Positions 6,656-64,000 of a DNA stretch of 64,000 nucleotides are shown piece by piece. The stretch lies in the NCBI GenBank assembly GCA_051313645.2, contig JBNRSN020000029.1:20646001-20710000 (forward strand). Direction: 5' to 3'. A program made the position numbers and the translations under genes. Position 1 is the stretch's first letter. Every line of letters starts with the position of its first letter. The DNA comes from Centroscyllium fabricii (taxonomy: Eukaryota). The notes under the pieces were generated by a model, which saw nothing but the letters and a program-made list of their open reading frames with translations, had not been told where the DNA came from and did not search any database.

Positions 6656-7476
6656 TGTGCCGGATTTTCTGACGCCTCCGGGGTGTACACGCTCAAAAGC
6701 GGGTTTGCAATTGCTGGTGTCATGCATGCGAAGTGCCTGCACTGAAACCAGTTACATGCGATCTGTCAAGAATTCTCTTGAAAGATCAACTGCATCCCCA
6801 GGAGAAGAGCCTCCGTGGATGGAGATTTCCGTGTTTTGCACAAATTCCGCCCGCTAAATGGCTGTCATTCGTAGAGGCCTGCTTTTACCAGCTGAAGAGT
6901 TTCATAACACATTTATAACTTAGAAATACTCTACAAAATGGTACGTGTATTTTTAGCATCATGAAATCATTATTTTTTGATAAAATTTAATAATTTTTTA
7001 ATATTCAATTAAAAATATTAATGTAACTTGTTGTGTATTTAAAGGTGAATCCCATTCATACATGTGACAGTCTGTACCAGCTTTAAGCTTACGCGGTAAA
7101 ATCGAATTTCTAACAATAGGTTCTACTTTGCGGCGGTTGTGACATATATGTGATAGAATTATGGCCTGTGATCAACAGTAACTAAATTAGAAAAATTCCA
7201 TTTAAATTAAATGGAGTATTATTAAACTCCTCTGTTGTCTTAAGGATTGACTTCAACAATCCATGCCATTAATTTTTGCACAGTGTAAACGAGTAACCTT
7301 TTAAATCTATAATCCTTAATTACAATTTTAAAACAGACAACACAGCAAGCTGGAATGGGCTAGGCACGAATTGGAAATAAGCATATGTAGATGAAATGTG
7401 GAGGTGCATTGATTTCAGACAAAGTTTGTTGCAAACCTATTATTTTGTATCAATAGATGGAGCGCCGAGCATTAGC

Positions 7477-7980
7477 TGTAATGGTTGTAGGTTGGGCCCA
7501 AATGCAAAACAGCAAAACAGCATACGTTGAAGTAAACTCCTTTATTTCTGAGCAGTAGAAGACATAGGTAACAGTGGGTCGATATATCGGCAGAAAGTTC
7601 ATGGAGGCAACAAGTCCAAAACAGAGGTCAGGCAGAAGGGAATCCAAATACCAAAAACAGGTCAATACCGGGTAGTCCGTCCAGGAGAGCGACAAATCCA
7701 AACGAGGTCAGGCAGAAGAGAATCCAAATTCCAGAAAGCAGGTCAGTATCTCGAACAGGCAGGATCAGAGAGCTTAGAACAAAATACAGGTATCACAGTC
7801 AGAAAGAACAAACGATCTGGCAACCACTAGGTAGAAAGCAGGAGCTTATATACAGCTCATGATTATCACTGGTGACTCTGGGCTGTTCAATCAGGTGTGG
7901 CAGTAGAGCTAACGAGGTGATAACCAGTTAAAGGGGAAGAGCCAACCTATGAGTTAAAGGGGAAGAGCCAACCTATGACA
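7477..7980 (-). mobile_element. Solo LTR (Gypsy-like), 504 bp
   Basis: TG...CA ends; 5-bp TSD TTAGC (7472-7476, 7981-7985); minus-strand TATATAA (~7850) and AATAAA (~7545); internal direct repeats at 7624/7704 and 7926/7952. Confidence 0.85.
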
Positions 7981-8250
7981 TTAGCAGCAACAACGTTTTA
8001 GGAGTTCCTTCGATTGATTAGACCCATCGAAATTTGATGGGTTCAGATGGCATTAATTGTTTATTGAGTATGCTCAGAGATATTGAAATGTCAATGATTC
8101 GTGGACCTGGACAGTAGCCAGCGAGAGAAAATCAAACGTTTCTTTATGTCTATTAATTAAAGTTCCATCTAAAGAAAAACATTGCTCATAGCATTGAACT
8201 GTTAACGAAAACATAAATACATCATTGAGCAATACATAGAAAAGTTAACA

Positions 8251-9387
8251 TTGCCAGAGATAGTCGGGTTGCAGGCATCCGCCGGTGCAAGCCTCTGACT
8301 TACAGTTACCTAGCCCGCCGGCCGTTGTGCTCTGGGCCCCCGTGGGATTCCGAACCGAGGTCTGCTCCAACTGCCGGCACACTGTGCTTGCATACCACAG
8401 TGTTGCAGATATTTCGAAGCATCCCCTGGGCGGCACGGTGGCATAGTGGTTAGCACTGTCGCCTTTCAGCACTAGAGACCAGGGTTCAAGTCCAGCCTTG
8501 CGGTACTATCTGTGTGGAGTTTGCCCACTCTCCCCGTGTCTGCGTGGGTATCCGCTGGGTGCTCCATTTTGCTCCCCCAGTCCAAAGATCTGCGGGTTAG
8601 GTTGGTTGGCCATGATAAATTGACCCTTAATGTTAGTGGATTGAATGTGTAGGGTTACGGGGATAGGGTTGGGATGTGTGTCGGTGCAGGCTCGATAGGG
8701 ATGGAGGGATATGGGGACAAGGCAGGGAGAGGGTACTGGGTTTGGATGATCAGTCATGATCTCATTGAATGGCGGAGCAGGCTCGAAGGTCCAAATGGCC
8801 TATTCCTGCTGCTAGTTTCTATGTTTCTATCTCATGGGCCATGGCGAGCCAGTGGTAGCTGAGAATCTCAAATCATGGTTTTGAAAGAAACACCTGTCAA
8901 ATCTATGAATCCAATTCAGTCCCGAATGATATCTTAAGCATCAAATATTTTTCTTAAAAATCAATTTTTAAAATAAATGTAAATAACATAAAATAAATTA
9001 TTTAAACAATAATTCAATGATTTGAAAAAATTAATGACACTTTGTAAGGGGCTAAAATAACCTTAACGTTTTTAAGGTATTTAATATTGTAAACCTGTGG
9101 AAAAATTGCTTTAATGTTAGTTAATACAGCACTAAGCTTCCGACTGATTTTTGCAAGTGAAGCTCCTGGAGACTTACCCTCCCGGAGAAACCGGCAAAAA
9201 AAGCGAGTGTCAGGTCGATGCACTGCCACTCCAGCACATGCGGTCAAATGCGAATCCTTTCCTTTAAGGGAACACAAGCTGCGGTTTTCCATGAATGCGC
9301 TGTGCTTGCACGAAACCAGCATGCTCGTTGGGGCTATGCACGAGTAACAAGTGCGTACTCACCCGTGGGAACCCGAAGTCCTGGCCA
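8251..9387. mobile_element. Non-autonomous TIR element (Harbinger-type MITE family) carrying a SINE insertion
   Basis: GCCAG/CTGGCC-type ends, GC-rich subtermini (GTGCAAGCCTC) and AT-rich core like 28397-29140, 35457-38767 and 54906-55380. Confidence 0.65.
8428..8830 (+). mobile_element. HE1-type tRNA-derived SINE with CR1-derived tail
   Basis: A-box TGGCATAGTGG, B-box GGTTCAAGTCC, CR1 3' tail GAATGGCGGAGCAGGCTCGAAGG and TTTCTATG repeats. Confidence 0.85.
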
Positions 9388-9740
9388 TCTGTCGGCAGAC
9401 TGATCTGCTCCTGCGTTGCACATGACTCTTCTTCTGGTGTGTACTCCTCCTCTAGGCGGAGTCGCATTCGGCTCTCACGGGCTCAGCAGGCAGGTTGGCG
9501 TATATTTCTCGGGTTCTTGCTATTTGCAGCATGAGTGAAGGCAAATGGAGTTCTCATTTTGTCCAATCAATCACCTTCGCGACTCATTAATGATGGACGG
9601 TTGGCTATTTCTTGCGTGTCCCTCACATTCGTTGGAGTTTATAGAATCATAGAATCATAGAAGATAGGAGCAGGAGTAGGCCATTCAGCCCTTCGAGCCT
9701 GCTCCGCCATTCAATGAGATCATGGCTGATCTTTAGCAAA

Positions 9741-12689
9741 CTAGTACCCCGTCCCCGCCTTTTCTCCATAACAATTAATCCCTTTAGCTTGAAGAAATAT
9801 ATCCAATTCCCTCTTGAATATGTTTAATGAACTGGCCTCCACCGCCCTCTGTGGCAGGGAATTCCACAGGCCCACCACTCTCTGAGTGAATAAATTCTTC
9901 CTCATGTCTGTCCTAAATGGTTTACCCCTTATCCTTAGACTGTGGCCCCTGGTTCTGGACTCCCCCGACATTGGAAACATTCTCTCTGAATCTAACCTGT
10001 CCAGACCTTTCAGAATTTTATACGTCTCAATGAGATCGCCTCTCAATCTTCTAAACTCCAACGAGTACAAGCCCAGACTACACAATCTCTCCTCGTAGGT
10101 CATTCCTGCCATTCCAGCAATCAGCCTGGTGAAACGCCGCTGCACTCCTTCCATGGCAAGAACATCCTTCCTCAGGCGAGGCGACCAGAACTGTACACAA
10201 TACTCGAGGGGTGGTCTCACCAGTGCCTTGTACAGCTGCAGTAAGGTATCCTTATTCCGATACTCGAACCCTCTTGATATGAAGGCCAACATACCATTTG
10301 CCTTCCCAACCGCCTGCTGCACCTGCGTGCTCGCCTTCAGCGACTGGTGCACAAGAACACCCAGGTCTCTCTGCACCTCCCCATCTCCCAATCTATTGCC
10401 ATTTAAGTAGTAATCTGCCCTCCTGTTTTTGCCCCCAAAGTGGATAACCTCACATTTATCCACATTATAGTGCATCTGCCATCTATCTGCCCAGTCCCCC
10501 AACTTATCCAAATCGCCCTGTAACTTCCTGACACCCTCTTCAGAGCCTGCCCCCCCTCCTAGTTTGGTGTCGTCCGCGAATTTGGAGATATTACATTCAA
10601 TTCCCTGATCCAGATCATTAATATATATTGTAAACAGCTGAGGTCCCAGGACAGACCCCTGCGGTACTCCACTAGTAACCGGCTGCCACTCAGAAAACGA
10701 GCCGTTAATTCCAACTCTCTGTTTTCTGTCTGCCAACCAGTTCTCTATCCACATCAAAACTTTTCCCACAATCCCATGAGCCTTAATTTCACATGCTAAT
10801 CTTTTATGTGGAACCTTATCGAAAGCTTTCTGGAAGTCAAGGTACACCACATCTACTGGCTCTCCCCCATCTATTTTCCGAGTTACTTCCTCAAAGAATT
10901 CCAATAGATTAGTTAAACATGATTTACCTTTTGTAAACCCATGTTTACTCTGTCCGATCTCATCCCTACTTGTCAAATACTCCGAGATTACATCCTTGAT
11001 GATGGACTCGAGCATTTTGCCCACTACTGATGTAAAGCTTACTGGTCTATAATTCCCTGCTTTCTCTCTGCCCCCCCTTTTAAATAGTGGGGTAACATTA
11101 GCCACCCTCCAATCCGTGGGTACTGATCCAGAGTCTATTGAGTTCTGGAAAATGATCCTTAATGCACCCTCTATTTCCGGGGCTACCTCTTTAAGTACCC
11201 TAGGATGTAGATTATCAGGCCCTGGGGATTTGTCGGCCTTCAGTCCCTTCAACTTCCCCAAAACCATCTCCCTAGAAATACTGATATCTGTCAGCTCCTC
11301 CCTTGCCTTGGACCCTATGTTCGCTGCTATCCCTGGGAGGTTGCTTGTGTCCTCCTTTGTGAAGACAGTACCAAAATATGAATTTAGTTGGTCTGCCATT
11401 TCTTTATTCCCCATTATATATTCCCCTGAATCGGACTGCAAGGGACCGACTTGGGATTTTACCAATCTTTTCCTCTTGATGTACCTATAAAAGCTTTTGC
11501 AGTCAGTATTTATGTTTGCCGCAAGCTTACATTCATATTGTATCTTCCCCCTCCTGATTAATCCCTTTGTCTTCCTTTGCTGTATCCTGAATTGCTCCCA
11601 ATCTTCCGGCCTAGTACTTTTTTTGGCCAATTGATATGCCCATTTTTTGGATTTAATATTGTCCCTTATTTCCCTTGTTATCCACGGTTGAGTCACCTTT
11701 CTAGGTTTATTCTTATGCCGAACCGGTATGAACGAGTTCTGTATTTCTTCCATCCTATACTTGAATGCTTGCCATTGTCTATCCACATTCAATCCCCCCA
11801 GGAACACTGCCCAATCTATCTTGCTTAATTCCCTTCTCATACCTTCATAATTCCCTTTATTTAAATTCAGGATCTTAGTCTCTGAGTTGATCTTTTCACT
11901 TTCCATCTCAACTGAGAATTCGATCATATTATGATCGCTCCGACCCAAGGGGCCTCCTACAACGAGATTGTTAATTAGTCCCTTCTCATTTCACAATACC
12001 CAGTCTAAGATGGCCTGATCCCGAGTTGGTTCCTCGACATATTGGTCCAGATACCCATCCCGTAGACGTTCTAGGAATTCCTCCTCCTTAGTATTTTTAC
12101 TAACTTGGCTAGTCCAATCAATAAGTAAATTAAAGTCGCCCATGACGACAGCTGTGCCCTTATTGCAAGCTTCTCTAATTTCCCTTTATATGCCGTCCCC
12201 CACCTCCATATTACTATTTGGAGGCCTGTATATAACTCCCACTAATGTTTTCCGCCCTTTACTATTTCTTAGTTCTGCCCATATAGATTCCGTATCATCT
12301 GAGTTAATATCCTTCCTTTCAATTGCATTTATCCCCTCTTTCACCAGGAATGCCACCCCACCTCCCTTTCTTTTGTGCCGATCCTTTCTGAATGTTGTAT
12401 ACCCCGGGATGTTGAGTTCCCAGCCTTGCCCCCCCTGCAGCCATGTTTCCGTAATTCCAATCAACTCATATTTGCTTACCTCTATTTCCACAGCTAGTTC
12501 ATCCACCTTGTTCCTAATGCTTCTTGCGTTAAGATACAAAGCCTTTAGGCTTGTTTTGATCACACTATTATGAATTTGTTTGGCCCTTTGTGTTTCTCTC
12601 CCTTGCTTATTGTTTCTCACCTTCCTACCATTTGTTTCTGGCTTCCTATGACATCCCTCTTTTCCACTACCTATCCAAACCCCCTGCAA
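9741..12689 (-). pseudogene. CR1 ORF2 (APE endonuclease + reverse transcriptase); one frame, two nonsense codons (~12187, ~11991)
   Basis: YLNARSI, ITETWL, YRPPN, GDFN, SDHN; [35 protein letters not shown]; ORFs 12186..12689 and 9741..11948 share a frame. Confidence 0.95.
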
Positions 12690-12691
12690 AG

Positions 12692-13641
12692 TTAGTTTAA
12701 ACCCTCCCCAACCATGCTAGCAAACCTCCTCGCCAGGATATTGGTCCCCCTCTGGTTAAGGTGGAGACCGTCTTCCCCATACAAGTCCCACCTTTCCCAG
12801 AAACAGGGCCAGTTATCCAGGAAACTAAAGCCCTCCCTCCTGCACCAACTCTTGAGCCACGTATTAAGCTGCTTTCTCCTTCTATTCCTATACTCACTAA
12901 ATCGTGGCACAGGGAGTAATCCAGAGATTACAACCTTTGAGGTCCTGCACTTAAAATTTCTGCCTAGCTCCCTGAATTCTTGTTGCAGGACCTCATCCCT
13001 CTTTTTACCTGTGTCGTTGATTCCTATGTGTACAACGACCTCTGGCTGGTTTCCCTCCCTTTTCAGGATGTCCTGCAGCCATTCCGTGACATCCTTGACC
13101 CTGGCACCAGGGAGGCAACAGACCATCCTGGAGTCACGTCTACAGCCACAGAAACGCCTATCTGCTCCCCTTACGATAGAGTCCCCTACCACTATTGCTC
13201 TCTCATGCCTTTTCCCCCCCAGCTGAACAGCAGAAGCAACCCCAGTGCCCGGATTTTGGCCACTGCTGCTTTCCCCTGGTAGGTCGCCCCCCCAACAGTA
13301 TTCAAAATGGTATACTTGTTCGTGAGGGGGATGGCCACAGGGGTTTCCTGCTCTACCTGCCTGGCCTTACTGTTCTTTCTGATGGTCACCCATTTCCCTT
13401 CTGCCTGCACACCCTTAGCCTGCGGTGTGACCAGCTCACTGTATGAGTAATCCACGCTCCCCTCAGCATCGTGAATGCTCCATAACCCTTCCACCCTCAG
13501 TTCCAGTGCCGCAATGCGGTCAGTCAGTAACTGAAGGTGGACGCATTTCCCGCACACATGGTCACCAGGGACTCCAGTGGTGTCCCTAGCTTCCCACATG
13601 TGGCAGGAGGAGCAAAGCCCGGCACCGTGCTCCACTGACAT
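12692..13641 (-). pseudogene. CR1 ORF1 (zinc finger/leucine zipper + SGNH esterase), one frameshift
   Basis: CSSCHMW..HVCGKC (13192..13641); VGDSIV, HIGINDT, DGLHLN (12692..13192). Confidence 0.9.
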
Positions 13642-14084
13642 GACTCACCCCACTAATTACTTTTACAAAAAATTAACACCACCAAAAAACTAGATATATA
13701 CTAGGGTGCTAGTCTATCAGAAGTCCCCGTTATGCCACAGAGACTTCAGAAAAATAAATAAAAATAAATAAATCACTTACCCTGCTTGCCTTTATAGCCG
13801 CCGCCTCCTGTTGTCTCCTCCTAGTACCGTCCCGCTGCCTGCTCCTGAAAAGAAAGAGCCGCGAAAAACTCCTGCCCTGGTCCTGCTGCTGCCACCGACT
13901 GCTACCTCTGTCCAGGAGCCCCTTCCACTCGCGTTCAGTCTCTGAAAATAATCAATAAATCACCTACCTTTTTTTAAAATTCTCTCAACCCCTAAAGGTT
14001 AGAGGAGGTGGAAGGGTGGGAGAAACTAGTGTAGTGTCTCGGGTTTAGCAACTGCTCCACCTATATACGGGTTCCAATCGATTT

Positions 14085-14778
14085 GCCCCGCCCCCTGGCT
14101 TTGAAAAAAGCCCGCGCTGCCACTGTGCTCTGGGCCTCGCTCCTCGGCGACTTTTGTAGCCGCCTCCCCGCTGCTGTTGCCGCCGCCGCCGACTACGTGA
14201 CCTCTCCTAGGTCCGCTCCAGTCGCGCTGCCCCCCCTGGCTTTGAAAAAAGCCTGCGCTGCCGCTGTGCTCTGGGCCTCGCTCCTCGGCGACTTTTGTAG
14301 CCGCCTCCCCGCTACTGTTGCCTCCACCGCCAACTACGTGACCTCTCCTAGGTCCGCTCCAGTCGCGCTGCCCCCCTGGCTTTGAAAAAAGCCCGCGCTG
14401 CCGCTGTGCTCTGGGCCTCGCTCCTCGGCGACTTTTGTAGCCGCCTCCCCGCTGCTGTTGCCGCCGCCGCCGACTACGTGACCTCTCCTAGGTCCGCTCC
14501 AGTCGCGCTGCCCCCCTGGCTTTGAAAAAAGCCCGCGCTGCCGCTGTGCTCTGGGCCTCGCTCCTCGGAGAATTTTGTAGCCGCCTCCCCGCTGCTGTTG
14601 CCGCCGCCGACGACTACGTGACCTCTCCTAGGTCCGCTCCAGTCGCGCTGCCCCCCTGGCTTTGAAAAAAGCACGCGCTGCCGCTGTGCTCTGGGCCTCG
14701 CTCCTCGGCGACTTTTGTAGCCGCCTCCCTGCTGCTGTTGCCGCCGCCGACTACGTGACCTCTCCTAGGTCCGCTCCA
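14085..14778 (-). repeat. Five tandem CpG-rich ~140-bp monomers forming the CR1 5' end
   Basis: CTGGCTTTGAAAAAAG recurs at intervals of 141, 140, 140 and 140 bp; units nearly identical. Confidence 0.95.
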
Positions 14779-16799
14779 CCCACAGCCTGTCCTTCTATCT
14801 CACATGTACCAGGCTTTGGATTGTGGAGGCTTCTCTTAGCAGTGTCCAACATGTCTTGACATTCTCAACGATTTGAAATGGCTTCAGCTGTCTTTTATCA
14901 GTTTGGTTTCAGTTGTGGTATTTCGTTCTCATCAGTTGTTTGTTGGCTTTTGCAGCGACATCTACACTGACTGTCATTTTGTTTTAAATTCATAATGTCC
15001 CAGGTATTTAAATCCACAATGTCTTCCCTTCAGTCCTCTAAAATAACTCTACCAGATCAGCTGATTGACACACTATACATTCCTTGAGCATTGATTGTGC
15101 TTCGTTTTGGGTACACCTCAGCAAATTTCAAAACAACACTAGAATACATTGCTTACCTATTGAAGCCATTCTAATTAATCTAACCTTTGGGTGTTGTTCA
15201 CTAGTAAAATCTACCTACCACCATGCATTACTCCAAGGATAGTTGCCCTGTTTATCTTTTCAGTATAGCGCTGTTTCATTGCATGTCATTCTTTCTACAT
15301 TTAGGGTTTTAAACTAAAAAAGCGATCCAAGAAAATGGTTTTCTCCATGCGGACCCAGCCATAATCTCCTCTGCACCCTATTAAACCTATGTGGCTCTAT
15401 CGAAGGGTCTTATCTTGTTCTTAATACATACCTATTTCGTGCCATTTGCTCCTCTAGTCTCAATTTTATTAGACCAATGTTAAACATAATGATACAGACA
15501 GGAAAGCCATATTAGTTTACACAGAAAATTACTGTGTACCATATTACTAATAAATAATAGGCTTAGAAAATTCCCCAGCTGTCATGTTTTCCTTAACCAT
15601 TTTATGGAAAACGTTTGCTAAGTTTTTTTTATCACACTAGCATTATGTTTCCCAATGTCATTTTTAAATCAAAGAAACGTAATCCTGTATTTTGTATCAA
15701 AAATCTTTTATCCCTTTTTACCTTAATTTTAATTACTCCAAAATGTTCCAGCGTGTTTAGCCATAACCTGACTATTGTGTTAAATACAAGTCGGTTTATC
15801 TATGCATCATATGTCAGAACCTTGATAAAAATATTTAATCACTCTGTGCAGCAATATTAACAATTATAGATCATGAGGTTGTCAAGTGTTGTGCACAATT
15901 GAGACCTGACCTTCAGTGCATTACCATGATGCATTTGCACATGCTAGTTGCCAACATACAGCACATCACATGTTCATACAGACACCGTTATCCCATTATC
16001 ATTCCATATGTGACATCGCATACAAGCCAATCCTGGTATTTCATTTTTTCTTACCGAAATGTTTGGATGTCTTTGCTCAACTCTCCTTTCATTGTTGCAA
16101 TGTGCGGGGCAGAGAAAGGCAATCAAATGCAGTTTTTATATGTTTCAGTATAGGCAAGTGCACGAAATCGCCAAAAGACAACTATCAATATCTGCTACTT
16201 CAAAAAAAAGCACAGGATCGATTGGCTGAGTGGCTTTATTCAATGGTGTAGTTTATATGTACCTATCAATTAATTATTCTTAACTACGCATTTCTGACTT
16301 GCATTGCATTGCGCATTGATACCAGATAGATACATTTTGGTGAACTGTGCCTAAGTGTGTTAGGTTACTCATGTGTGCGTGCGCATAACTTTCCCAAACA
16401 CTTTGGATTTATTCAAATTCACCCATTAGCACCGCAGAAAATAAGTTCGAAAAATTAGTTTGGGGTTGTAATTTTTCTGCATCTATCTTATATCCTCAAA
16501 AACTTCATCTCATACAATTTTGCACACTCTTTGTTATTACTAATTCATCTCATTTCTGAGCCCTGGGGGGTAATTGACTTGCAGTAAACTCCTTTGAACT
16601 TTGGCCAATATCTCATTACATTTATTCTTTATCTTAATTAAAGTCTTGTGCGACTATTTTACCTTCCAAATATCGTATTACATTCCCACGTCGCAAAGTC
16701 ATATATTTTTCATCTCAAAGACGTCTAATGGCCTCAGTGGTCTTTAATCCCTGTATTTGAGTTGTAGCATTTATTTCTTATCAGTGGTTTATTTGGCGT

Positions 16800-16960
16800 T
16801 TACTGCATTTCTGCACAAACTGTCATTGGTTTGTAGGTTCACCATGGCCCAGCAACTTAAATGGACAGTGTCCCAGGGATGTTGATGCAATTGCTTCGAA
16901 AAGCGGGTACTTTTATAGGTCGGTTTCCGAACAAGTAGGAAACCCATCGGGGCTGAGACT
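16800..16960 (-). pseudogene. Possible foamy-like integrase C-terminal tip overlapping the env start
   Basis: PMGFLLVRK..DTVHL..LLGH loosely resembles PFV PVVGQLVQER..RTVVILDHLG; position matches the foamy pol/env overlap. Confidence 0.35.
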
Positions 16961-17049
16961 GCATCCGTCCAGGTTAGCTTTCAGCACTGAACATCAAAGA
17001 TAAATTGAAACGGGCCATTCGAGACCCTGAGAGGGACTATCTGTAAGCA

Positions 17050-17780
17050 ACGTCACGTGACTTCATCTGACTTATACAATTTTGAGGCCACTATGATGTG
17101 ATCATTGTGTCTCATTGGATACTGCATCAGTAGCTGGAAATATTGCACCACATAATCTTCATTCTTATGTAAATATGGAGGGCCTAATTTCCTATCAATA
17201 AAAGGCAACATTGCATGATTGCAAACAGCCATCCTTTTTGCAGGATATCACCAATCTAAGCGAGTCATGCTATGTCCAAACTAGGCCATATTTCTTTCCA
17301 CAATTCGCCATTGTTCTTCATTTTCCCCCAAACTGGCACATATTGCTTCCGTAGCTTTTTGAATCCAAACATCTCAAATCAAAGTTATATTATGTTCTAT
17401 CACACAGAATAAAGCTGACAAAATGCACAGTCCTGAGTTGTCTATTGTTAACACCTGTTTCAATATTACATGCAGGATGATTTGACCCTGCTGTCGATAC
17501 AGCCCAATTTTGCACAGGCCTTCCCCTATTTACTCTTTTGCTACAGCCCACTGCGCTAATTATCCCGTGCTGTCCATTACTTATGGAAAGCTGTTAACCT
17601 ATCTTGTTTGGTTTTATGTTTTGGCAGCAATGTGGGATGGTTCTGTCATTCAGCAGAAAGCGGTCGGTGTCCGAAAGTTTGACACAAATGCTGTGGGACA
17701 GCTTGAGTTTGGCAGCATTAAACTAAAATGTCTGGATGATGAGCCTACGTCAGCCTTACTATATATTAACGTTATACGGG
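17050..17780 (-). pseudogene. Foamy-virus-like gag relic upstream of env A
   Basis: RFLLND (RLILQDD), TG*LAQWAVA..EGLCKIG (SGPLAELQLA..EGPLRFG), VWIQKATEAI (IWLGRNAPAI), LA*IGDILQ (MHQLGNVIK). Confidence 0.6.
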
Positions 17781-18695
17781 ATCTCTGTCAACAGTTGGTA
17801 TGAATATTTGATTTCGATTTTTGGACGTGTGTCCCTGTGTCTGTTTCTCATCCTGTCTCTGTATTTTCTCCCTCCCCCTGCTGTAACGAAGATAACCATT
17901 CTAATGTAATTATCAAAACACAACACAGGTGAATGATAATCAAAACTGTCAATTAGTCATTCCGTTGTGTTTTTATATGAAATAAATTAAAAAGAAACAA
18001 CCAAACAAAATCTAGGCTAAATTTTCAACTTGATCACTAGGTCTTCACGTGACACCTGAGTGGATCGCGGACAGAAAAAGCTTACATGTAGAACCACACA
18101 CATTCTTTTCAAAGAGAGGAACATCAGACGGGTTCAGCAATTTTTATCAATTGCAATTTCATTGAAAGCTTTAGTTTGGAAACTACAAAGATCATGCACT
18201 CTGAAAGCATTTTTATTAATATAAGGGGGAAGGACAGATAGCTAAACTGTACTGTCTGGTTGAACAAGCAAGGCATTTGATGCGAAATTGGTCTCCCGCA
18301 ACAGCATGTAAAGTCTCATAGATCAGATAATCAACTTGGGCTGTAGCGCTAAACAGGCTTTATCATATCAGCTGCCTGTTACACATTCTTCCCGATATTC
18401 AAGCGGGCCATTTAATAGGGAGCAGATGTGAAACAATCCATAAAGTGCAAGTGACCGTGTCAAAGACTTATCCCATAACGAATTCGCAACTTGTTTACAC
18501 CATGTCCAATTTGCATTGTGTTTGAAGTAAATGGCAATGGAAAACGGGCTGTAGGGATACAGATGTTCAAGTGATTATTGAACCTCCACAAAGTAACCTT
18601 ACATATTACAACATTTTACACAGCATTAAAATAGTTTACCGACCATAAAGAAAGCTTAAAGCAAGAAACACACACGTTAAACCAAGAATTCAACG

Positions 18696-19800
18696 TCATG
18701 TCGGCAGACTGATCAGCCCTTGACTGGAACTTGGCTCTTCTTCTGGTTGACGTCTTCCTCTAGGCTGAGCGTCCGTAGACTCTCGCGGACTGCAGTGCAG
18801 GACTTGCCACGATGTCTCATTTTAATGTTGTTTCTGCCGGTTGAGTCGAAAATAACAATTATTGGAAAATCAATGTTCTCCAATCATCCACCGTTGCTAG
18901 TCATTAATGGTTAACGGTTGACTGTTTGGTGTGTGTCACTGAACGGCATTAGCTGTTAACCCATGTGAAACCCAACACCCACAGCCAGGCCGTCTACCTT
19001 ACATGTTCCAGATTATGGCTAGCGTCAGCCTCACTTGTCAGATTCCAAACTCGGTCGAAGCCTCATTTCACACAGATGCCCTGTCCTTCCCAACGATTTA
19101 TAATGACATCGACAGTCTTATCCCAAGAATTGTAATACATTTGCCAACTTCATTCTGATCAGTTGATTTGGGGCTTTTGCAGCGAATATCTGTACAAACT
19201 CTGTTTTCATTTTAAATGCACAATGACCGATGATTTTTGCCGGACACTTCAGTTGCCCCTCGACTGTCTCTGACAGATGTTATGATAGTTTCACCTTATA
19301 TGCATTGACCATTAATTTTCCTTGTAGTTATTTTAGTAGCATAAGACAATTATCATAATAAATGTTCGAATTGATTGCGTACATGTTGAAGACAGTCTCA
19401 TTATTCTAACCTATTGGTGTTGTCCAATGTTGTAAACTGTGTCTAACCATTCATAGTCTCATAACTTTTGTAACTTTTAATCAATAAAATAATTACCTAT
19501 TTTACTGTTAACTATGTGGTAAACTGAGATTCGTGATTGTGCCATATTCCTCCACTGTCATAGAAGGGTAATCCATACTGGCACAATCACGCATCTCAGT
19601 TTACAACATAGTTAACATTAAAGGGAACGAAGATACTTGCGATATTATTTACCTTTGCTTGTAGTTTAAGACAGGCGATGTCGGCTCGGAACAAACACAT
19701 AATAATTTTTCAGAACCGGGATTAAAGCAAATAGACAAACATATCTGTTACCCTTCCTGATTGAACCTCAAAACTGGTTTCCTTACCATTCTCTCAAACT
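18696..19800 (-). pseudogene. Foamy-like env relic B, paralog of relic A
   Basis: Nucleotide similarity to 9391-9640 and 14779-15600; shared frames GTCKVDGLAVG/GTCEIEGQAVG, QHQ*VRIMRLSS/QHPKVRLIRMAS, ISLPT. Confidence 0.75.
19506..19617. repeat. Inverted repeat, 39-bp arms, 34-nt spacer
   Basis: 19506-19544 vs reverse complement of 19579-19617: 2 mismatches. Confidence 0.9.
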
Positions 19801-25179: not shown

Positions 25180-26061
25180 GGGCCATGTCTTCCTGTGGCC
25201 CGATTTCTGCGGGTGCGCGCTGACGTGCACCCGCGGCGCACGTGCACATAAAAAAATCTGTCACGTGAAGTTCCAGTGCAAAAAGCCGGGTTTTTTTCGT
25301 TCGGAGCGGTCGTGTTTTTTTTGGTGCGGGGTGCACTGAGGTCGGCTTTACCCCCGCACAAAGCACAGAATCGGCCTGAGGATGAAGAAGATCGGGTAGG
25401 GAAGCACCTTTTTTTGGGGTTTTTTCAGTTTCTAGGAAGCTGGTTTTTTTAAGTTTCTGTTTTTTCTGCTGTTAGGGTTTTTTTTGCTCCAGAGAAAAAA
25501 ACACGTTAAAAGTTAAAAAAAATTGATTCCTTTGGAGATATTTGTCTGTGGTCTTTCAGCTTGTGAATGTGTAGGGTTTTATATTTTTTGGTGAAAGTGA
25601 AAAAAAACGGGGATTTGAACGCGATGTCAGCAGCTGTGATTCCCATCAGAGCTGCTGACATCGCGTTCAAATACCCGTTTTTTTTCACTTTCACCAAAAA
25701 ATATAAAACCCTACCCATTCACAAGCTGAAAGACCACAGACAAATATCTCCAAAGGAATCAATTTTTTAAAAACTTTAAACGTGTTTTTTTCACTTCTCA
25801 AAGCTGCCTGCAGCCTCTTAAGACTGCTTTTTATATGTGTAGCAAAAGAGACACTTCCCCACGTGATACACCTGCATTTTGAGCAGCTGCCAACAGGAAG
25901 TCTGCAGCTCAAAGTCTTCCTGGGTAGGAAGCTGAAGCCCCTTGCCCATCAGCACAGGAAGTTCACGTTTCTGGTAATCACCCGAGCTGCACCCCCACCA
26001 GGCATTTCTGATCCCCCTTCGCGGAGGTGCAGCTCTTCTGGAGCACAGGATAACAGGGCCC
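25180..26061. mobile_element. Harbinger-type MITE with internal long palindrome
   Basis: Imperfect TIRs GGGCCATGTCTTCCTGTG / CACAGGATAACAGGGCCC; 3-bp TSD TAT (25177-25179, 26062-26064); removing it restores CR1 sequence. Confidence 0.8.
25495..25790. repeat. Near-perfect palindrome, ~145-bp arms, loop TCCC (25641-25644)
   Basis: Arms are reverse complements; mirror ORFs 25506..25718(-) and 25567..25770(+) give near-identical peptides. Confidence 0.95.
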
Positions 26062-28147: not shown

Positions 28148-29420
28148 GGAATATCAGGAGCAAATTCAGCTTGTGATCCTCCCCACCAGAATGTCCTAAC
28201 TGTATCTTGTACAGATGAATAAAACTAAACTATATACCATGGAGAAAAGTGCTGCAGTGGGCACGTACCTGCTAAACTGGGCAAATGAATAGTGGCTGGG
28301 ACCTGTGCTAACATGATCTGTGCAATGGAAGGAGGACCTCACAATTAGTGGGAAACTTAATAGAAAACCGCAGAAGAAAATCCTTAGATATTAAATGGGC
28401 CAGAAATTATGGTTGGCGTATTCCCGCGAGTGCAAGCCTCCAACACACACTTACAGACCGCAGATAACTTTCATCTTTTCTGGGACTTGAAATCCCGATT
28501 CCCGGCCGAGGTTCAAGCCCGACGCACCGCGCTGAGGTAACACAGTGTCGAAGATAGTGGGAAGCTGCGCGCGGGAACAACTGGTACACGGGGAGGCAAT
28601 CAGGGCAAAGAATGCTCCATTCATAAGTTTGACAGACCAGATCAGTCACACTTATGGAAAATAGATTCCCCAAAACAAACTAAACAGTAAAATATTTTTT
28701 TTAAATCACATTTCTTTTAATTTACTATAACAAAAATGAATTAGCTATTTCAAACAAAAGATAAACATTTTGAAAAAAATATTTTAAGTTTTTAACGGCC
28801 GTAGAAAACTACTTGCCTGTCTTTAAAGTTTTCAAAAATGTTAAATCGGTGAAAAAAGTACTTAAATTTTTAAAATAAGTGTTACCTGAAAAAATCGGCG
28901 CTTGCAAAAAAGAGCCGTAAATACTTCATGAATTATATGAAAAAAAATCGGAATTGCACTGCACACCTCCTGGTGCGCAGGCCAACGCGCTGAAGCCCCA
29001 ACCCACCCCAACCCCGGCCTTCACCAGAATTGCATGTTTCCCAAGCATGCGTGGGAAATGCCGTTCATCAGCTCTTCTGGGGGCCGCACGTGTGAGTACC
29101 CAGTCCATACTCGCACATTGCCGCCCTAGTTTCTTGGCCATTAATACATTTTAAATTATCGGCAGTGCACCTGTTATTTTCTGACAATCTGCCCGCGGTG
29201 TGTAAGATGTTGTCAAAGGCATGGTTCCTCAGACATTTCTGCTCATTATTTTCAAATCGATCTATCTATTATGTCTCTCTCTACCTGAATGTCTGCGAAT
29301 TTTCTGGCAGTTACCATCGCAACAACGTGTTGTTAGTCTGGCAACAAAAACTCGACTGATGAGTCACCCTCAATTGGTTTTAATCAGAAGCTTTAATTAA
29401 ATGACCGAATCTGATTAGCA
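28148..29420 (+). pseudogene. Foamy-like env relic F (leader and start of SU), split by MITE 28397-29140
   Basis: QEQIQLVILPTR (KEQIILDI..PTR), NWANE*WLGPVLT*SV (QWNKDIQVLGPVIDWNV), RRRKSL, SLPECL..QQRVVSLA (SIPQGV..KERVLGLS). Confidence 0.55.
28397..29140 (+). mobile_element. MITE copy (~745 bp)
   Basis: TIR GGGCCAGAAA..TTTCTTGGCC; similar along its length to the reverse complement of 29425-30175. Confidence 0.8.
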
Positions 29421-29424
29421 ATAT

Positions 29425-30175
29425 TGGCCCAGAAATGAGGGCTGCAATGCACAAGTACAGAGTGGGTACTCACGCGTGCAGCGCTCCGAATTGCTGTTGG
29501 ATGCCATTTCCTGCGCATGCGTAGGATACCTGCAATTCTAGTGAAGATCAGGGGGGATGGGGTCACCAGCTTCACTGCGTTGGCCTGCGCACCTGGAGGT
29601 GCACATTGCAATTCCATTTTTTTTTCCATGTCAGTACTGAAGCAATTACGGCTCCTCTTTCGAAGCACAAGGAGCCGATTTCTTCCTGTAAGTCACTAAT
29701 GCATTAAATTTAGAAAAAATAAAATCGCAGGTTTTTCATTTTATTTAATTTTAAAGACAGGTAAGTAGTTGTGTTGGCCAGTTAAAAACTTAAAATATGT
29801 TTTCAAAATTTGTGTTTTTTGTTTAAAATAGCTACTTTATCTTAATTATATTAATTAAAAAAATGTAATTAGTTTTAAAGTTAATTTGATGTTTACTGAC
29901 TTTAGGGGGCTCTTGTTTTTCATAAGTCTGACAGATGAAGTCTGTCAAACGTAAGAATGGAGCATTTTTTGCTACGATTGTCTCCCCGCGGACCACTTGT
30001 TCCCGCGCAGAGCTCCCCAATATCTGCACCCTTCAGTTGCCTCAGCACATCGGGCTTGCCACTCGGCCAGAAATCGCGATTTCAAATCTCTGAAGAGAAG
30101 AAACTTCTGTTCGCTCCGTAAGTGTGGCTTGGAGGCTTGCACTCGCGGGAAGCCTCCAGTCCGAATTTCTGGCAC
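29425..30175 (-). mobile_element. MITE copy (~750 bp), inverted relative to 28397-29140
   Basis: GGAGGCTTGCACTCGCGGGAA (~30131) mirrors TTCCCGCGAGTGCAAGCCTCC (~28421); related peptides in ORFs 28954+ and 29393-. Confidence 0.8.
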
Positions 30176-30214
30176 ATATGTTAAATCACATGCAATTAAT
30201 GCAATCTGGATCTT

Positions 30215-39189: not shown

Positions 39190-39690
39190 AATTACTTCCT
39201 GTGTACATAATTTCAGGTATTCAGTAAAGGACAACCAATGATAATCTTGGAAAAAATTCCCTGTAAATTGCCAATTGGAACATGCATAGCAGGTGGTCCT
39301 GCTATGCAAAATCAAGCTGTTGGACCGTACACATATGGGTTGCATTTTTCGGGTTGGAAACCATATGGACTCCTTTTGCTCAATGTGTGTTAATTTCACC
39401 GCTCAATGCTCTGACCAGCAGGCACGTTGGACTGGCCAATGGAATGCGGAGGGTTAACTGAGGAAACACGAATCGTGAGAATCACAATGACTCTGAAATG
39501 GCGAACCGAAGGATATCCATCATTTTAATTCTATACAAATCTTGCAATGTTATACTTTTCTGGAGGACAGCGTTCTTATATTGCATAGTATGCAATTTAC
39601 AAATTCTCAATCTTTACAGATCAATTAATTTGATCATCTCACCCTCGTAAGAGAAACTGGATATTAAGATTAGAAATTTGAGTTTCGGCA
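39190..39690 (+). pseudogene. Possible foamy-like env TM relic, heavily deleted; may continue relic F
   Basis: SML*PAGTLDW (TMLLERRIDW), EETRIVRI (DEMKVIKRI), ILRLEI (LLRLDI). Confidence 0.4.
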
Positions 39691-50450: not shown

Positions 50451-50697
50451 ACGTGGATATAAACTGATGCAATCTGGAGGCAATCATTTCAAACCACATC
50501 ATTTTTGTTTAATTGAATTAATTCCCAGAAAAAATCGATATTGAGTGACCATACTGAAATCATCTTTTCAGTATTTGCGCGTTTACAAGCTGTGGAGCAA
50601 GAATGGTTGAGCGATAGGAACAGAAATAGACAATTCGGTGTGATGTAACACCTGATGCTCAATGACTCACGTTCGCTTATTTTTTTCCCTCTTGCAG

Positions 50698-51602
50698 CTA
50701 ATTTAGTGACGATTGTGATTCTCTCCCGGGGAAAGTGCGGTCTCTCCAAATGCATCACTCGCTATCTGATTGCCATGGCAATCGCGGATCTCCTGGTTAT
50801 GATATTTGACGTGATACTTTATGCGATCAGCAATATTTATTTCCCATATTCATTCCTGAACTATACTTCCAGCTGCAAAATTAGTCACCCTCTGATTTAT
50901 TGTGTCATTGATTGCTCAGTCTGGTTTACAGTGACTTTCACATTTGATCGCTTTGTAGCCATTTGTTGCAGGAATTTGAGAATTAAATATTGTACCGAAA
51001 GGAACGCAGCTACTGTTTTAGTGACAGTTTGTGGGCTGAGCTTTTTACAAAATATTCCTATGTATTTTACGTATGAACCCCGGGAAATAATTGGCAATAC
51101 TTGGTGGTTCTGCACTGTTCAGTCTAGCTTCTACACCTCACCCGCCTGGGTGGCTTATTTCTGGTTAGAAATTATTTTAACCCCATTTGCTCCATTTGTG
51201 TTCATTTTACTCCTCAATGCTTTGACCATCAGATATATTTTAGCAGCTAATAAATTCCGCAGGAAAATGCAAGGCAGCATTGGTGAGAATCACAATGATC
51301 CAGAGATGAGGAATCGAAGGAATTCGATCATCTTACTGCTCGCCATATCTAGTAATTTTATACTGTTGTGGATGTTAACTCTTACTTATTACGTGTGTAT
51401 ACAAATTGCAGACTCCCAGTTTTTGCAGACAGATTACACCGACCCTTTCACCATCATGGAACAAACAGGATATCTGCTTCAGCGGCTCAGTTCCTGCACC
51501 AACACTATTATTTATGCCGTGGCTCAGACTAAATTCAGAGAGGAGTTCGTGAACACGGTTAAAAGCTCCTTCACTCTAATTATTAAGTTAATGAAACATT
51601 GA
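50698..51602 (+). CDS. GPR139/GPR142-like orphan GPCR, coding exon 2 (spliced product 324 aa)
   Basis: Acceptor TTTTTTTCCCTCTTGCAG; G|CT = Ala keeps the frame; ANLVTIVILSRGKCGLSKC, MAIADLLV, FDRFVAICC, DPEM..RR.SIILL, SSCTNTIIY; open to TGA. Confidence 0.95.
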
Positions 51603-55384: not shown

Positions 55385-56380
55385 CAAACAGAAACTGACA
55401 CCTCACACCCAAACTCACTTCTCAACTCAAACTGACCACACACCACCAAACTGACGTATCACTCACAAATTGACCCATCTCCGTAAATCCACCCCCTCAA
55501 TACACACAGAGCCCTCATCCCAAACTGACTCGTCACTTCCAATCTGACCCATTACCTTCATCTGACTCGTCCTCCAACTGACCCATGACTTCAAAACTGA
55601 CACATCACATTCAAACTGATTCATCCCCCCAAAATGACCCAGCATCCCAAACTGACCAACATTCCCAATCTGACACCTCACCTCAAACTGACCCTACACT
55701 CCAAAACTTACCCTTCAACCTAAATTGTCACTTCATCTCAAACTGATGCAATACCCCCAAACTGAACCATCTCTCATAAACTGACACCTCACTCCCAACC
55801 TGACCTACAACACGAAAATCAAACTGCACCCATAAACTGAAGTATCACCCCAAAACTGACCCGTACCCCGAACAGAACCATCACTCCCAAAATATCCATC
55901 GCCCCCATCCTGTCAGTCACTTCCATACTGAATCGTTACTCCCAAACTGTCTCATGAAATCCAACTGAACCGTCAAACCCAAACTAATAATTCATTAAAA
56001 ACTGACCCATAAACCGCAAACTGACCCCTTCCCTCATTCTAAACGAACACCTGCAAAATGCCCTTCACCCCCAAACTTTCATACCACCTGCAAACTGGAC
56101 AATTATCCCCAAACTGACTATCAACCCTCAAAATGATCATTCACTCCGAAATTAACACATCACCTCCAAAATGATCCATAAACCTAACTTGAACACTCAC
56201 CCCAAACTGTTCCACCACTCGAAAACTTACCGATCACAGCAACTGACTAAAATACCCATACAGACACTCTCTCACAAGATGATGCCACCCCCGAAAAGAC
56301 CCCATAACCAAACTGACCATCGCCCCAAAATTAAACCATAAGCCACAAACTGACCAATCAACACCAACTTTCTGGTCACG
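55385..56380. repeat. Degenerate ~18-19-bp satellite (CAAACTGACC(C/A)ATCACCC)
   Basis: Recurrent AAACTGAC cores at ~18-19-bp spacing. Confidence 0.9.
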
Positions 56381-56394
56381 TCCAAGCTGTCGCA

Positions 56395-59100
56395 TCAACA
56401 ACAACAACATGTATTTGTATGGCACGTTCAACCTAGTAAAACGCCCCAAGGCAATTCCCTCGAGTGTTAAGAGACAAAGCAAAATTGACAGCGAGCCACA
56501 TAAGGAGAATTTAGGTCAGATGTCCAAAAGCGTGTTCAAAGCGGTCAGTTTTAACGAGCGTCTTCAAGGAGGAAATAGAGGTCCCGAGGCGGAGAGGTTT
56601 AGGGAAGGCATTCTAGAACTTAAGGCTTTGGCTTCAGAAGGCATGGACAGCAATGGTGCAGCGCTTAAAATCTTGGACTTTTACGATGGCAGAATTAGGC
56701 GAAGGCGGATATCTCGTGTAGTTGTGGGGCTTGTGGAGATTACAGAGATAGGGAGCGGTAAGGCCATGGATGGATTAACAAAACAAGGATGAGAATTTTT
56801 AAATTGTGCTGTTGCTTAACCGGAAAACAACATAGGTGAGCGAGCGCAGCTGTGAAGGGTGAACTGGACTTGGTTTGATTTAGGGCATGGGCAGCTCAGT
56901 TTGTGAGTTTCAGAAGGGTTGAATATTGTAGGAGTGCATTGAAATAATCACATTTAGAGTCATCCAAGGCATGGTCGACGGTTTCTGCAACAGGAGAGCT
57001 GAGGCAGGTGCAGAGATGGGCGATATTACGGAGTTGGGGATTGTTGGACATAGTTGTAGTGCAGATATGTGGTCAGAAGTAAATTTCAGGTTCAAGTATG
57101 ACAAAAATGTTTGCGAACGGTCTTGCTCAGCCTCAACTAGGAGCGAGGGAGCGGGCTGGAGTCACTGGTTATTAAAAAGAATTTGTGGCAGGGAACAAAC
57201 AATGGCTTCAGTCTACCCACAATTTAATTAGAGAACATTTCTGCTCCACCTGTACTGGAGTCTGTGCAAACAGTCTGAAAATTTAGCGAGCTTAATTAAA
57301 ATGACAGAGTGTTCAATGGTTTGCTTTTTATGAGGAGAGATTTCATGACGGCAGTATTGAAGGCGAGGCAGACAGTACCCGAGGAGAGAAAACTGTTAAC
57401 AATGTCAGCCAGCATGGGAGCCTGAATAGGAAGTTGGATGGTCAGCAGTTTAGTGGGAATAGGGTTGAAAGTGCAGGAGGTGTGTCTCATGGACAAGGTG
57501 AGCTCGGAAAAATCATGGGATGAGGTCAGAGAGAAATAGGAGAAAGATGCGAGGTAAGGGCTTGGGCAGTAGGTAATCGGAGAGGCAGTTTGTCCTGGTG
57601 GGTTTGAGGACAATAGGGAAGTGGCGTAGACAATTGATCAGGTGGTCTCAATCATCGAATTAAATTAGCCCGTGAACTCCTCGCACTTGTTTTTGCAGAG
57701 AAGGGTGGCGGAGACACGGGAGCGGGGTTTCAGAAGACTGTTACCAGCAGAGAATAGGAACCGTGGGTTATCATTGCATTGCTGAATAATTCTGATCTAT
57801 TGAATAGTTTTGGCAAATTCGTGTAGGACTCCATGATGTTTTATGTGGGCAGCCAGATCTGGTGATGAATAACAAACCACGGGACAATAGTATGTTTTCA
57901 GGTCTGCATCCCTTGGACTTAATTGAGCTGTGATTAGGGCAATGCCAGGGGGAGTGGGCAGAGTGAAAGAGAGTAATTGTATTAATAGGGACGAGGACAT
58001 CGAAGTTAGCGGTGAGAGTGTGGTTACGCTGATTGGTAGTTGCAGAAATGCCATGGTGAATGGAGGGCCAGAGGCTGGACAGTTTAGATTTCCTAACTGC
58101 AGTTGCAATATAGGTGGGAGAGATTTTCAAGGGGCGGACACAGAAGGAATTAGGGTTTGAGGGTTGGAACGGGAATGTGGCTGGAGAGCAATAGAAGGGA
58201 GTTGGCAGAGATCACCTTATCTACGATTGACAAGATGGGAGTATCGAGGCCACGGGAGATGGCAAGATCGAGGGAGTGGCCATGAATATTGCTACGGGTG
58301 GTTTACATAGAAGGAGTTGTTGAGGCAGGATTTGAGGGCAGTAACCTCACAGGAGAAAGAGCATGCAGCTTTGAGATGGAAGTTTAAATCAGAGGCAGTC
58401 TTCTGAAAGCAATAAACACATCTCGGTAATGACATAATTATGGTACATGGGTGAATGGTAGACAGTAGATATTTTAAATGAGAGGTGAGACTCGTGGAAT
58501 AAGGTGAGATTCTCAGAGGAGGAGAAAATGTTTCAGGAAGAAAGGAACTGACCAAGGTGTGATTTGGTGATGAGAATTACACCCCCACCACAGCCATCTG
58601 AGTGGGGCAATTGGTAGATGGTATAGCCAGGTGGGAGATTTCATTTAGCTGTAAGTGGTCATCACAACTCAACGAAGATTCAATTAGGCTCATGATGTCG
58701 ATGCAATGAGGCCCGAAAAGCTCATGGATGGTCACAGGTGAACGGACATTTTGGAGGGAGATGTGGAGAGGGTCGATGATATCTAATGCCCTGCCAGCGT
58801 CCACAGGTCAGCACTGGGAGCAGTGTGTTGGAGGGGGAGGACAATGGCAACATTAACACCCAGCACGTGAACTGGGCGGGATGGTCAGCGAAAGAGTAGG
58901 AAGGGACAGTTGGGGTGGATGCTCATGAGGAGGAAATTACAAGTGTTATGGTGAGCTCTTCTGAGGATGCCAAGAGAGGCACAGGGGGAAACTCTAAGCT
59001 TATCAACGAGGGATTCGTGCCTGGGACGGCGGCAGAAGAGTACTAGGTTCGAAGAATATTGAAAAGTTGGGGTAGGGATTTGGGAAGAGAGGAGAAATGA
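56395..59100 (-). mobile_element. Degenerate L2 LINE inserted in the satellite
   Basis: TSCTFNPIPTKLL..LADIVNSFLSSGTV..FNTAV (57296..57613), APE remnants near 58300-58700, (AAC)n tail at 56395-56410; 5' region may extend to ~60100. Confidence 0.8.
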
Positions 59101-63400: not shown

Positions 63401-63590
63401 ATGATCCTCAAACAGACGAAAAACTACAATCTGACCGACCACCCCCAACCTGACAGATAAATCCAAACAGAATACTCACCCCGAAACTGGCCCCTCACCC
63501 CCAAACTGTCCCATCAACACAAACTGACCAATCATCCCCAAACTGACAAATCACCCCAAACTGACTAATCAACACAAACTGAAACAGCAA
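60460..63590. repeat. Same ~18-19-bp satellite, more homogeneous toward the 3' end
   Basis: CAAACTGACCAATCACCC and CAAACTGACCCATCAACA variants in tandem. Confidence 0.95.
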
Positions 63591-63594
63591 CTCT

Positions 63595-64000
63595 ATCATT
63601 AGTTCCTCGCTACCTTCGTGGATAGTCCCTGAGGACTGGAGAGAGGCGAATGTGGTTCCCATATTTAAAAAGGGGAGCAGGGACGTGCCAGGGAACTACA
63701 GACCAGTCAGCCTTACCTCGGTGGTCGGAAAGTTGATGGAAAGGGTCCTGAGGGACAGGATCTACGACCATCTAGAAAGGGGTAAATTAATCAGGAGCAG
63801 TCAGCACGGATTGGTTAAGGACAAATCGTGCCTGACCAATCTGATAGAATTCTTTGAAGAGGTGACAAAGTCTGGGGATGAGGGAAAGGCGGTTGATGTC
63901 ATATACATGGACTTCAGCAAGGTGTTCGACAAGGTCCCGCACGGTCGACTCATGAAGAAAGTAAGGAGTTGCGGGGTAAACAAAGAAGTAGTGGGATCGA
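63595..64000 (+). mobile_element. CR1 RT fragment closely matching 41020-41430; runs off the window
   Basis: WREANVVPIFKKG..NYRPVSLTSVVGK..MDFSKVFDKVPHG. Confidence 0.95.

Follow-up and report, generated by a model that had tools for sequence, protein, structure and literature searches.

We analyzed a 64,000-nucleotide stretch of the Centroscyllium fabricii genome (contig JBNRSN020000029.1, positions 20,646,001 to 20,710,000; hereafter the window), in which a first-pass annotation had proposed a foamy-like provirus on the minus strand, comprising gag, an integrase tail and Env, running from 17780 down to 7240 and split by younger insertions. The sequence hosting these insertions is probably the 3' part of an old, dead and dispersed element, most likely of the long terminal repeat (LTR) type. 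The foamy gag-integrase-env identity is not supported and is contradicted in its borders, and the stretch is an ordinary transposon graveyard, in which younger elements inserted into an old repeat family.

Copies and collinearity of the host family

The host sequence comprises the pieces at approximately 16650-14779, 9640-9388 and 8250-8076, which lie in order and on one strand in two dispersed copies (L041 and L066) and in a paralog (L050). As the pieces are collinear in dispersed copies, they belong to one old element. The main copy was found to be collinear in L031, L033, L035 and L045 as well. The family pieces in the window, together with a low-copy repeat beside them, are as follows.

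14779-16650, minus strand: main copy of the old dispersed family, represented by internal sequence truncated at its 5' side near 16650; no recognisable protein.
9388-9640, minus strand: subterminal part of the same element, between a CR1 long interspersed element (LINE) and an insertion resembling a miniature inverted-repeat transposable element (MITE); matched in 5 of the 12 family loci.
8076-8250, minus strand: terminal part of the element, with the terminus decayed in this copy; matched in 8 of the 12 family loci.
18550-19430, minus strand: second partial copy (internal tail and terminal part), with the exact terminus CTGTATCCCTACA at 18562-18550.
16713-16872, minus strand: third, short copy, repeating 15023-14863 (71% over 162 nt, E 9e-13) and holding the residues 'PMT'.
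16809-17296, minus strand: separate low-copy repeat piece that had been read as part of gag, with 70-77% matches in L047, L053 and L067 only.

Positions 14780-17900 gave 53 matches in the genome (with the best 40 of 115 candidates scored), namely the locus itself, its duplicate and the rest at 66-79%. Long matches to one family copy (n=20) were 67-80% identical. Among the 12 loci chosen as family members, 16263-16650 was matched in four, 15500-16189 in five, 15050-15500 in six and 14779-15050 in two, while 17300-17900 was matched in none. The main copy is A-rich on the minus strand (A 0.36, C 0.15). Beyond 16650, other copies run at least 2.5 kb further upstream with sequence that is missing from the window. 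Altogether, the family is at least 4.5 kb long, of which the host in the window represents the 3' 2.3 kb, and two to three partial copies lie head to tail in the window.

Pieces of Harbinger, Gypsy and LTR elements adjoining family copies were rejected as parts of the family and regarded as unrelated insertions. A transposon named Harbinger-like by eye from its frames occupies 1372-4726 of L031 and also lies beside or inside the old family in L040, L041, L042 and L044. Its proximity to the family in five loci may reflect either chance or target preference.

The family terminus

In all seven dispersed copies aligned, the common sequence extends as far as ...ATCCCTACA, with a single mismatch in two of them, and stops directly after ...CCCTACA. 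In the main copy of the window, the terminus lies near 8076 and has decayed, and the pieces 9640-9388 and 8250-8076 constitute the last 430 bp before it. A terminus search yielded 41 rows from 133 candidates, about 10 of which are copies of one amplified segment, and 39 of the 41 reach the last three bases.

The terminus is of the TG...CA type expected of an LTR element, with TGTAG read inwards, and an ATTAAA motif is located about 95 nt before the family end. As far as the available text of PMC2836005 goes, TGTNR is the end pattern of both Gypsy LTRs and Ginger elements. No A-rich or simple-repeat tail was found at the terminus in the dispersed copies. The bases flanking nine termini were neither CCGG/CCGT nor the AT-rich RTATAY, and no inverted terminus was found upstream in the loci examined. 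A weak inverted match at 17020-17267 was rejected, as it vanished when a profile of eight termini was used.

The motif GGGTG was found about 450 bp inside the terminus in both copies of the window and in L050; it carries one mismatch in L066 and is missing in L041, L062 and L057. It is preceded by pyrimidines, without a clean purine tract. In the accessible part of PMC5210030, GGGTG is reported at the junction of the polypurine tract (PPT) with the LTR of foamy-like endogenous retroviruses (ERVs). Two further candidates at the terminus were rejected. A putative LTR pair turned out to consist of duplicates from one amplified segment, and a link between the terminus and an adjacent class I ERV in L175 amounted to a single independent case, with a CR1 piece and no family sequence in between; its apparent copies likewise stem from one amplified segment.

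Order of the nested insertions

The locus has two relatives that serve as natural empty sites, so that nesting was tested without joining pieces. The duplicate L029 is 98.1-98.2% identical to the locus and about 180 kb distant, and the older inverted paralog L050 is about 75% identical and lies immediately outside the window. The insertions and the flank are as follows.

9641-14778, minus strand: near full-length, young CR1 LINE, identified by Pfam, with an empty site in L029.
8254-9387, no strand assigned: MITE-like insertion carrying a short interspersed element (SINE), absent in L050.
7477-7985, minus strand: solo LTR with TG...CA ends and a 5-bp TTAGC duplication, situated in the flank beyond the family terminus.
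16190-16262, no strand assigned: 73-bp insertion private to the locus copy and its duplicate, absent from the first-pass annotation.
7077-8075, no strand assigned: local flank, previously taken for the transmembrane (TM) part and tail of Env, common to neighbouring paralogs on the same contig only.

The CR1 element encodes a GDSL esterase open reading frame (ORF) 1 product, an endonuclease and a reverse transcriptase (RT), as judged by Pfam. It carries a 140-bp 5' tandem repeated 4.9 times and ends in a short-repeat tail. L029, which lacks CR1, retains about 16 bp at the site and shows no target duplication; the CR1 insertion lost about 16 bp of its target. The ends of the MITE-like element are weakly inverted (15 of 21 aligned positions), and its copies elsewhere are at 67-77%. 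The high-copy SINE inside it (approximately 8428-8830), which we presume to be the one named HE1, has a tail matching the CR1 3' end (82% over 136 nt). The solo LTR is missing from L050, and copies of it were found at 78% and 86% in L053 and L056, respectively. Positions 16263 and 16189 adjoin in five dispersed copies (L031, L033, L035, L036 and L043), all of which therefore lack 16190-16262.

As CR1 is missing from L029, it is younger than the corresponding duplication; the collinearity, in dispersed copies, of the host pieces on either side of CR1 and the MITE-like element makes the host older than these insertions. The empty sites show the order of insertion. An old local duplication generated L050, after which the MITE-like element and the solo LTR entered one copy; a recent duplication then gave rise to L029, and CR1 arrived last. 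The proposal that CR1, the SINE-bearing MITE and the solo LTR are nested in one older element is confirmed by the empty sites in L029 and L050, with the qualification that the solo LTR lies in the flank.

Apart from these insertions, positions 5021-28177 of the window form with L028-L030 a 95-98% segmental duplicate about 180 kb off, the two differing by whole insertions. About 150 bp at 18935-19087, within the second partial copy, are missing in the 98% duplicate. Another MITE-like element with long inverted arms occupies 28395-30177 of the window, and its end resembles by eye that of the 8254-9387 insertion.

Family borders and the proposed foamy virus anatomy

The collinear pieces and the empty sites bear out the earlier view of one old element split by younger insertions, but not its identity as foamy gag-integrase-env. 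Env motifs had been followed down to a stop at 7240. The family ends near 8076, and 8075-7240 is local flank present in same-contig paralogs only. Consistently, a genome-wide search with 7000-7476 returned four long matches, all on the same contig, and 7986-8075 and 7240-7476 were matched in L050 alone (1 of the 12 family loci).

The integrase tail overlapping an Env start had been placed at 16829. The segment 16872-16713 around this position duplicates 15023-14863, 1.85 kb downstream, and both segments match the same place in L045. As the former is a copy of the latter, a single sequence would have to serve as the start of Env and again as its middle, which is impossible. The letters 'PMT' are indeed present in one frame at 16829, but they are not kept at the homologous place in other copies. 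As for the supposed Gag motifs at 17780-17050, they fall partly in the separate low-copy repeat and partly in unmatched sequence, neither of which is the upstream neighbour of the family in other copies.

Protein similarity

The frames were read with X at stops, and the proteins of foamy-like, class I, Gypsy and Tx1 elements from the same genome were used as yardsticks; the prototype foamy Env was compared through Pfam and PDB only. No retroviral Pfam family matched any of 12 long frames, 27 short frames, or 23 and 13 alignment members, and Foamy_virus_ENV (PF03408) was detected in none of 75 frames or alignment members. PDB sequence searches with one frame and the alignments A1, A2 and A3 gave no meaningful match, and word-based searches with A1 and A3 among longer proteins, a weak method, found none. 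HMMER over 1.84 billion representatives with A4 (the upstream block in a frame chosen by eye) retrieved two repetitive bacterial-type proteins, which we took as chance matches. Profile comparison with hhalign yielded probabilities of 0.04-0.47% in all five comparisons.

Frameshift-tolerant scoring was applied to the window alone and to codon frequencies over about 10-14 copies per column. The highest z values were 1.4 (n=12) and 2.7 (n=18), both at shuffled levels. Queries of RT, integrase and Gypsy scored at most 51 on the family in 30 comparisons, whereas 76-345 was reached in nine of ten cases on controls from decayed Gypsy and class I elements, the tenth being an RT profile on an integrase-only control. 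Likewise, RT and integrase profiles scored 25-41 on family anchors against 243-271 on these controls. For the family parts examined, i.e., the window and 4.5 kb of family sequence, this excludes Pol and integrase.

The run of Env motifs that had been described as correctly ordered did not stand out when scored. The collinear Env score across the four pieces was 66 against a null of 68.5 +/- 7.4, and 15 of 25 shuffles scored as high. Gag (39 against a null of 42.8, in a test that is weak for distant lineages) and integrase (45 against 41.0) were also at the shuffled level. We regard the Env result as unsupportive rather than decisive. The sole hint of a retrovirus was a weak integrase C-terminal match at 14923-14790 (iE 0.07-0.11 among 1704 tiles), and a better chance match occurred elsewhere.

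Words of RT, integrase, RNase H, L1 ORF2 and Env picked by eye from the same frames did not survive any scored test, and the readings as RT-RNase H-integrase, as integrase alone and as plus-strand L1 ORF2 were rejected on the same basis. In one of these tests, two rows exceeded z of 4, with raw scores (42 and 44) within the null range of other rows. The ORF2 proteins of Tx1/L1 and CR1 from this genome gave no signal on either strand of the host. Open frames on the plus strand have fewer stops, which is explained by base composition, and are not protein-like. The synonymous share of shared variants was near neutral in all six frames. The failure of the by-eye readings shows that motif reading weighs little at this locus.

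Foamy-like and class I retroviruses of the same genome

At least two genuine foamy-like retrovirus lineages, with many copies each (loci L092-L109), were found in this genome. Their integrase is closest to the prototype foamy integrase (E 3e-48), and one lineage matches Foamy_virus_ENV (E 2e-20) and a solved foamy Env (E 2e-9). A class I lineage was distinguished by an RT closer to that of gammaretroviruses (E 1e-145) than to that of foamy viruses (2e-57) and by a TLV_coat env. L175 and L176 contain pieces of class I (gamma/epsilon-like) ERVs with zinc-knuckle Gag and TLV_coat env, residing in a segment amplified to many 95-97% copies on few contigs.

Interpretation and alternative explanations

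We favor the 3' part of an LTR-type element. An element with a TG...CA-type end spread long ago, most likely by copying through RNA and with integration by an integrase supplied by family parts beyond those examined or by another element; partial copies came to lie head to tail at the locus. The data show no present function. Several observations count against this interpretation. In the loci examined, the terminus did not recur upstream, and the analysis revealed no LTR pair, 5' LTR boundary, primer-binding site (PBS) or target duplication. The family was followed upstream to a point short of its far 5' end, and the short copies L055, L059, L063 and L175 end at differing 5' points, which fits 5' truncation too. 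The Env test barely detects even the env remnants of a sister foamy-like lineage, which scored 50-70 against null means of 57-68 (seven controls). Finally, in some bins of 60-90 bp, one of the minus-strand frames has few stops and mismatches are spread unevenly over codon positions; these stretches hint at a coding origin.

The family is very old. Shark sequences have been assumed to evolve at 2.2e-10 per site per year, a rate flagged as uncertain by its author in the portion of PMC4422223 available. At this rate, the 67-80% identity would place the origin of the family before that of sharks, which means that the rate is an underestimate or that the copies descend from subfamilies that had already diverged.

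A possible albeit unlikely alternative is an endogenous retrovirus, foamy-like or other and very divergent, of which the 3' half is represented here. Env and/or accessory genes would form the internal part and the 3' LTR would end at 8076, in which case the class assigned earlier would be right and its borders wrong, with no gag, no integrase tail at 16829 and no Env beyond approximately 14800. The A-rich minus strand, the TG...CA terminus and the occurrence of true foamy-like lineages in the genome agree with such an origin. GGGTG in the two window copies and L050 recalls the border motif in the available part of PMC5210030, though no clean purine tract precedes it and three copies do not have it. 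The same source describes, as far as it is accessible, several fish foamy-like ERVs whose gag and env have no detectable retroviral homology. Because the Env test is weak, barely seeing sister-lineage remnants, a very divergent retroviral env may lie in 16650-15050. On the other side stand the lack of a Foamy_virus_ENV match in the 75 frames and members, the low hhalign probabilities and the Env chain at the null level; moreover, the integrase pieces adjoining family copies are Gypsy-type insertions. Rather more doubtful is the narrower proposal of an ancient retrovirus lineage of sharks, foamy-like or unplaced, of which the family would represent the 3' half in dozens of copies or more; its env and accessory genes would have diverged too far for a match with the younger foamy-like and class I lineages of this genome.

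A DNA transposon of the cut-and-paste kind, bounded by TGT...ACA (Ginger-like or of some other type with long terminal inverted repeats, TIRs) and possibly containing introns, of which the host would be the right end, is improbable. The TGTNR terminus resembles that of Ginger in the part of PMC2836005 at hand, the end is sharp without an A tail, and a splice-acceptor-like run is seen in the sequences of the upstream block. Against these stand the nine termini without CCGG/CCGT or RTATAY, the absence of a Gypsy-like integrase signal, the absence of an inverted terminus upstream and the loss of the 17020-17267 match with the eight-terminus profile.

Very improbable is a non-LTR or Penelope-like element whose copies, truncated to varying extents on the 5' side, keep the 3' end. 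The fixed 3' end and variable 5' ends of the short copies would suit it, but the terminus has no A-rich or simple-repeat tail, the Tx1/L1 and CR1 ORF2 proteins gave no signal, and the terminus does not clearly outnumber the core and upstream parts, which occur about as often.

The complete foamy model of one provirus, in which gag at 17780-17050 is followed by an integrase tail and by an Env extending from 16829 down to 7240, is scarcely credible: the pieces between 16650 and 8076 do form one element and a weak integrase C-terminal match exists at 14923-14790, but that match is in the wrong place and equalled elsewhere, the family terminates at 8076 with 8075-7240 in local paralogs only, 16872-16713 is a duplication, 17300-17900 is in none of the 12 family loci, and Gag, integrase and Env score at null.

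Other features of the window and genome

An open frame of 317 codons at 50649-51599 (plus strand) belongs to the rhodopsin family of receptors (E 2e-19) and may resemble GPR139-like shark receptors. It has no in-frame start, and a splice-acceptor-like site is close to its beginning. Broken relatives occur nearby, namely a fragment at 39294-39581, L050 8146-9314 and L028, and the locus looks like a duplicated receptor cluster.

A hairpin with 44-nt arms, 93% complementary, lies at 19501-19622; a search of Rfam gave one hairpin microRNA match at 19512-19611, far below threshold. A near-perfect palindrome with 146-nt arms and a 4-nt loop at 25495-25790 is present in other loci too. Degenerate minisatellite arrays of 18-19 bp units span 55388-56400 and 60500-63600. 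Outside the window, the L135 region contains a tandem Tx1-like array with long open ORF2 frames on one contig.

Significance and comparison with known elements

As it stands, the locus has little value beyond its nested-insertion order, which can aid the annotation of repeats in this genome of 7.2 Gb, where CR1 elements and CR1-tailed SINEs abound. In open papers, a word search found no description of the family; repeat libraries were outside that search, so this is not evidence that the family is unnamed. If the family were retroviral, it would rank with the oldest retroviral fossils that are known in multiple copies from a cartilaginous fish, and the record of retroviral envelopes would gain an old env lineage from a shark, given that only pol was detected in the one shark of PMC5512871, as far as its available text goes. 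The firmer lead on shark env is offered by the genuine foamy-like lineages of the genome that match Foamy_virus_ENV, rather than by this locus.

Compared with the foamy-like ERVs of fish and sharks, as described in the accessible parts of PMC5512871 and PMC5210030, the family is alike in its A-rich strand, its TG...CA end and a host genome with true foamy-like lineages, and its long region without a recognisable homolog before the terminus recalls their accessory genes. It differs in that the parts and copies examined showed no spuma-like pol, Foamy_virus_ENV match, PBS or LTR pair and mostly no clean PPT-GGGTG border; a PBS for tRNA-Lys, tRNA-Asn or tRNA-Thr and a target duplication of 4 nt would be expected of a foamy-like ERV. 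With Ginger1 and Ginger2, as far as the available text of PMC2836005 describes them, the family shares the TGTNR terminus and the lack of a tail, but neither the CCGG/CCGT or RTATAY target, nor the Gypsy-like integrase, nor the inverted partner (the Ginger TIR being 40-270 bp).

The insertions themselves resemble the CR1 elements and CR1-tailed SINEs of sharks, with the GDSL ORF1, endonuclease and RT in the former and the CR1 3' end in the latter; the sole oddity here, compared with CR1 of sharks, is a small target deletion in place of a duplication. As for the family, we take Gypsy/ERV LTRs and large non-autonomous LTR derivatives to be the classes for comparison. Although neither paired LTRs nor a solo-LTR boundary was seen, and no RT or integrase in the 4.5 kb examined, the family shares with them the TGTNR terminus, the poly(A)-like signal located some 95 nt short of it, and dispersed, decayed copies.

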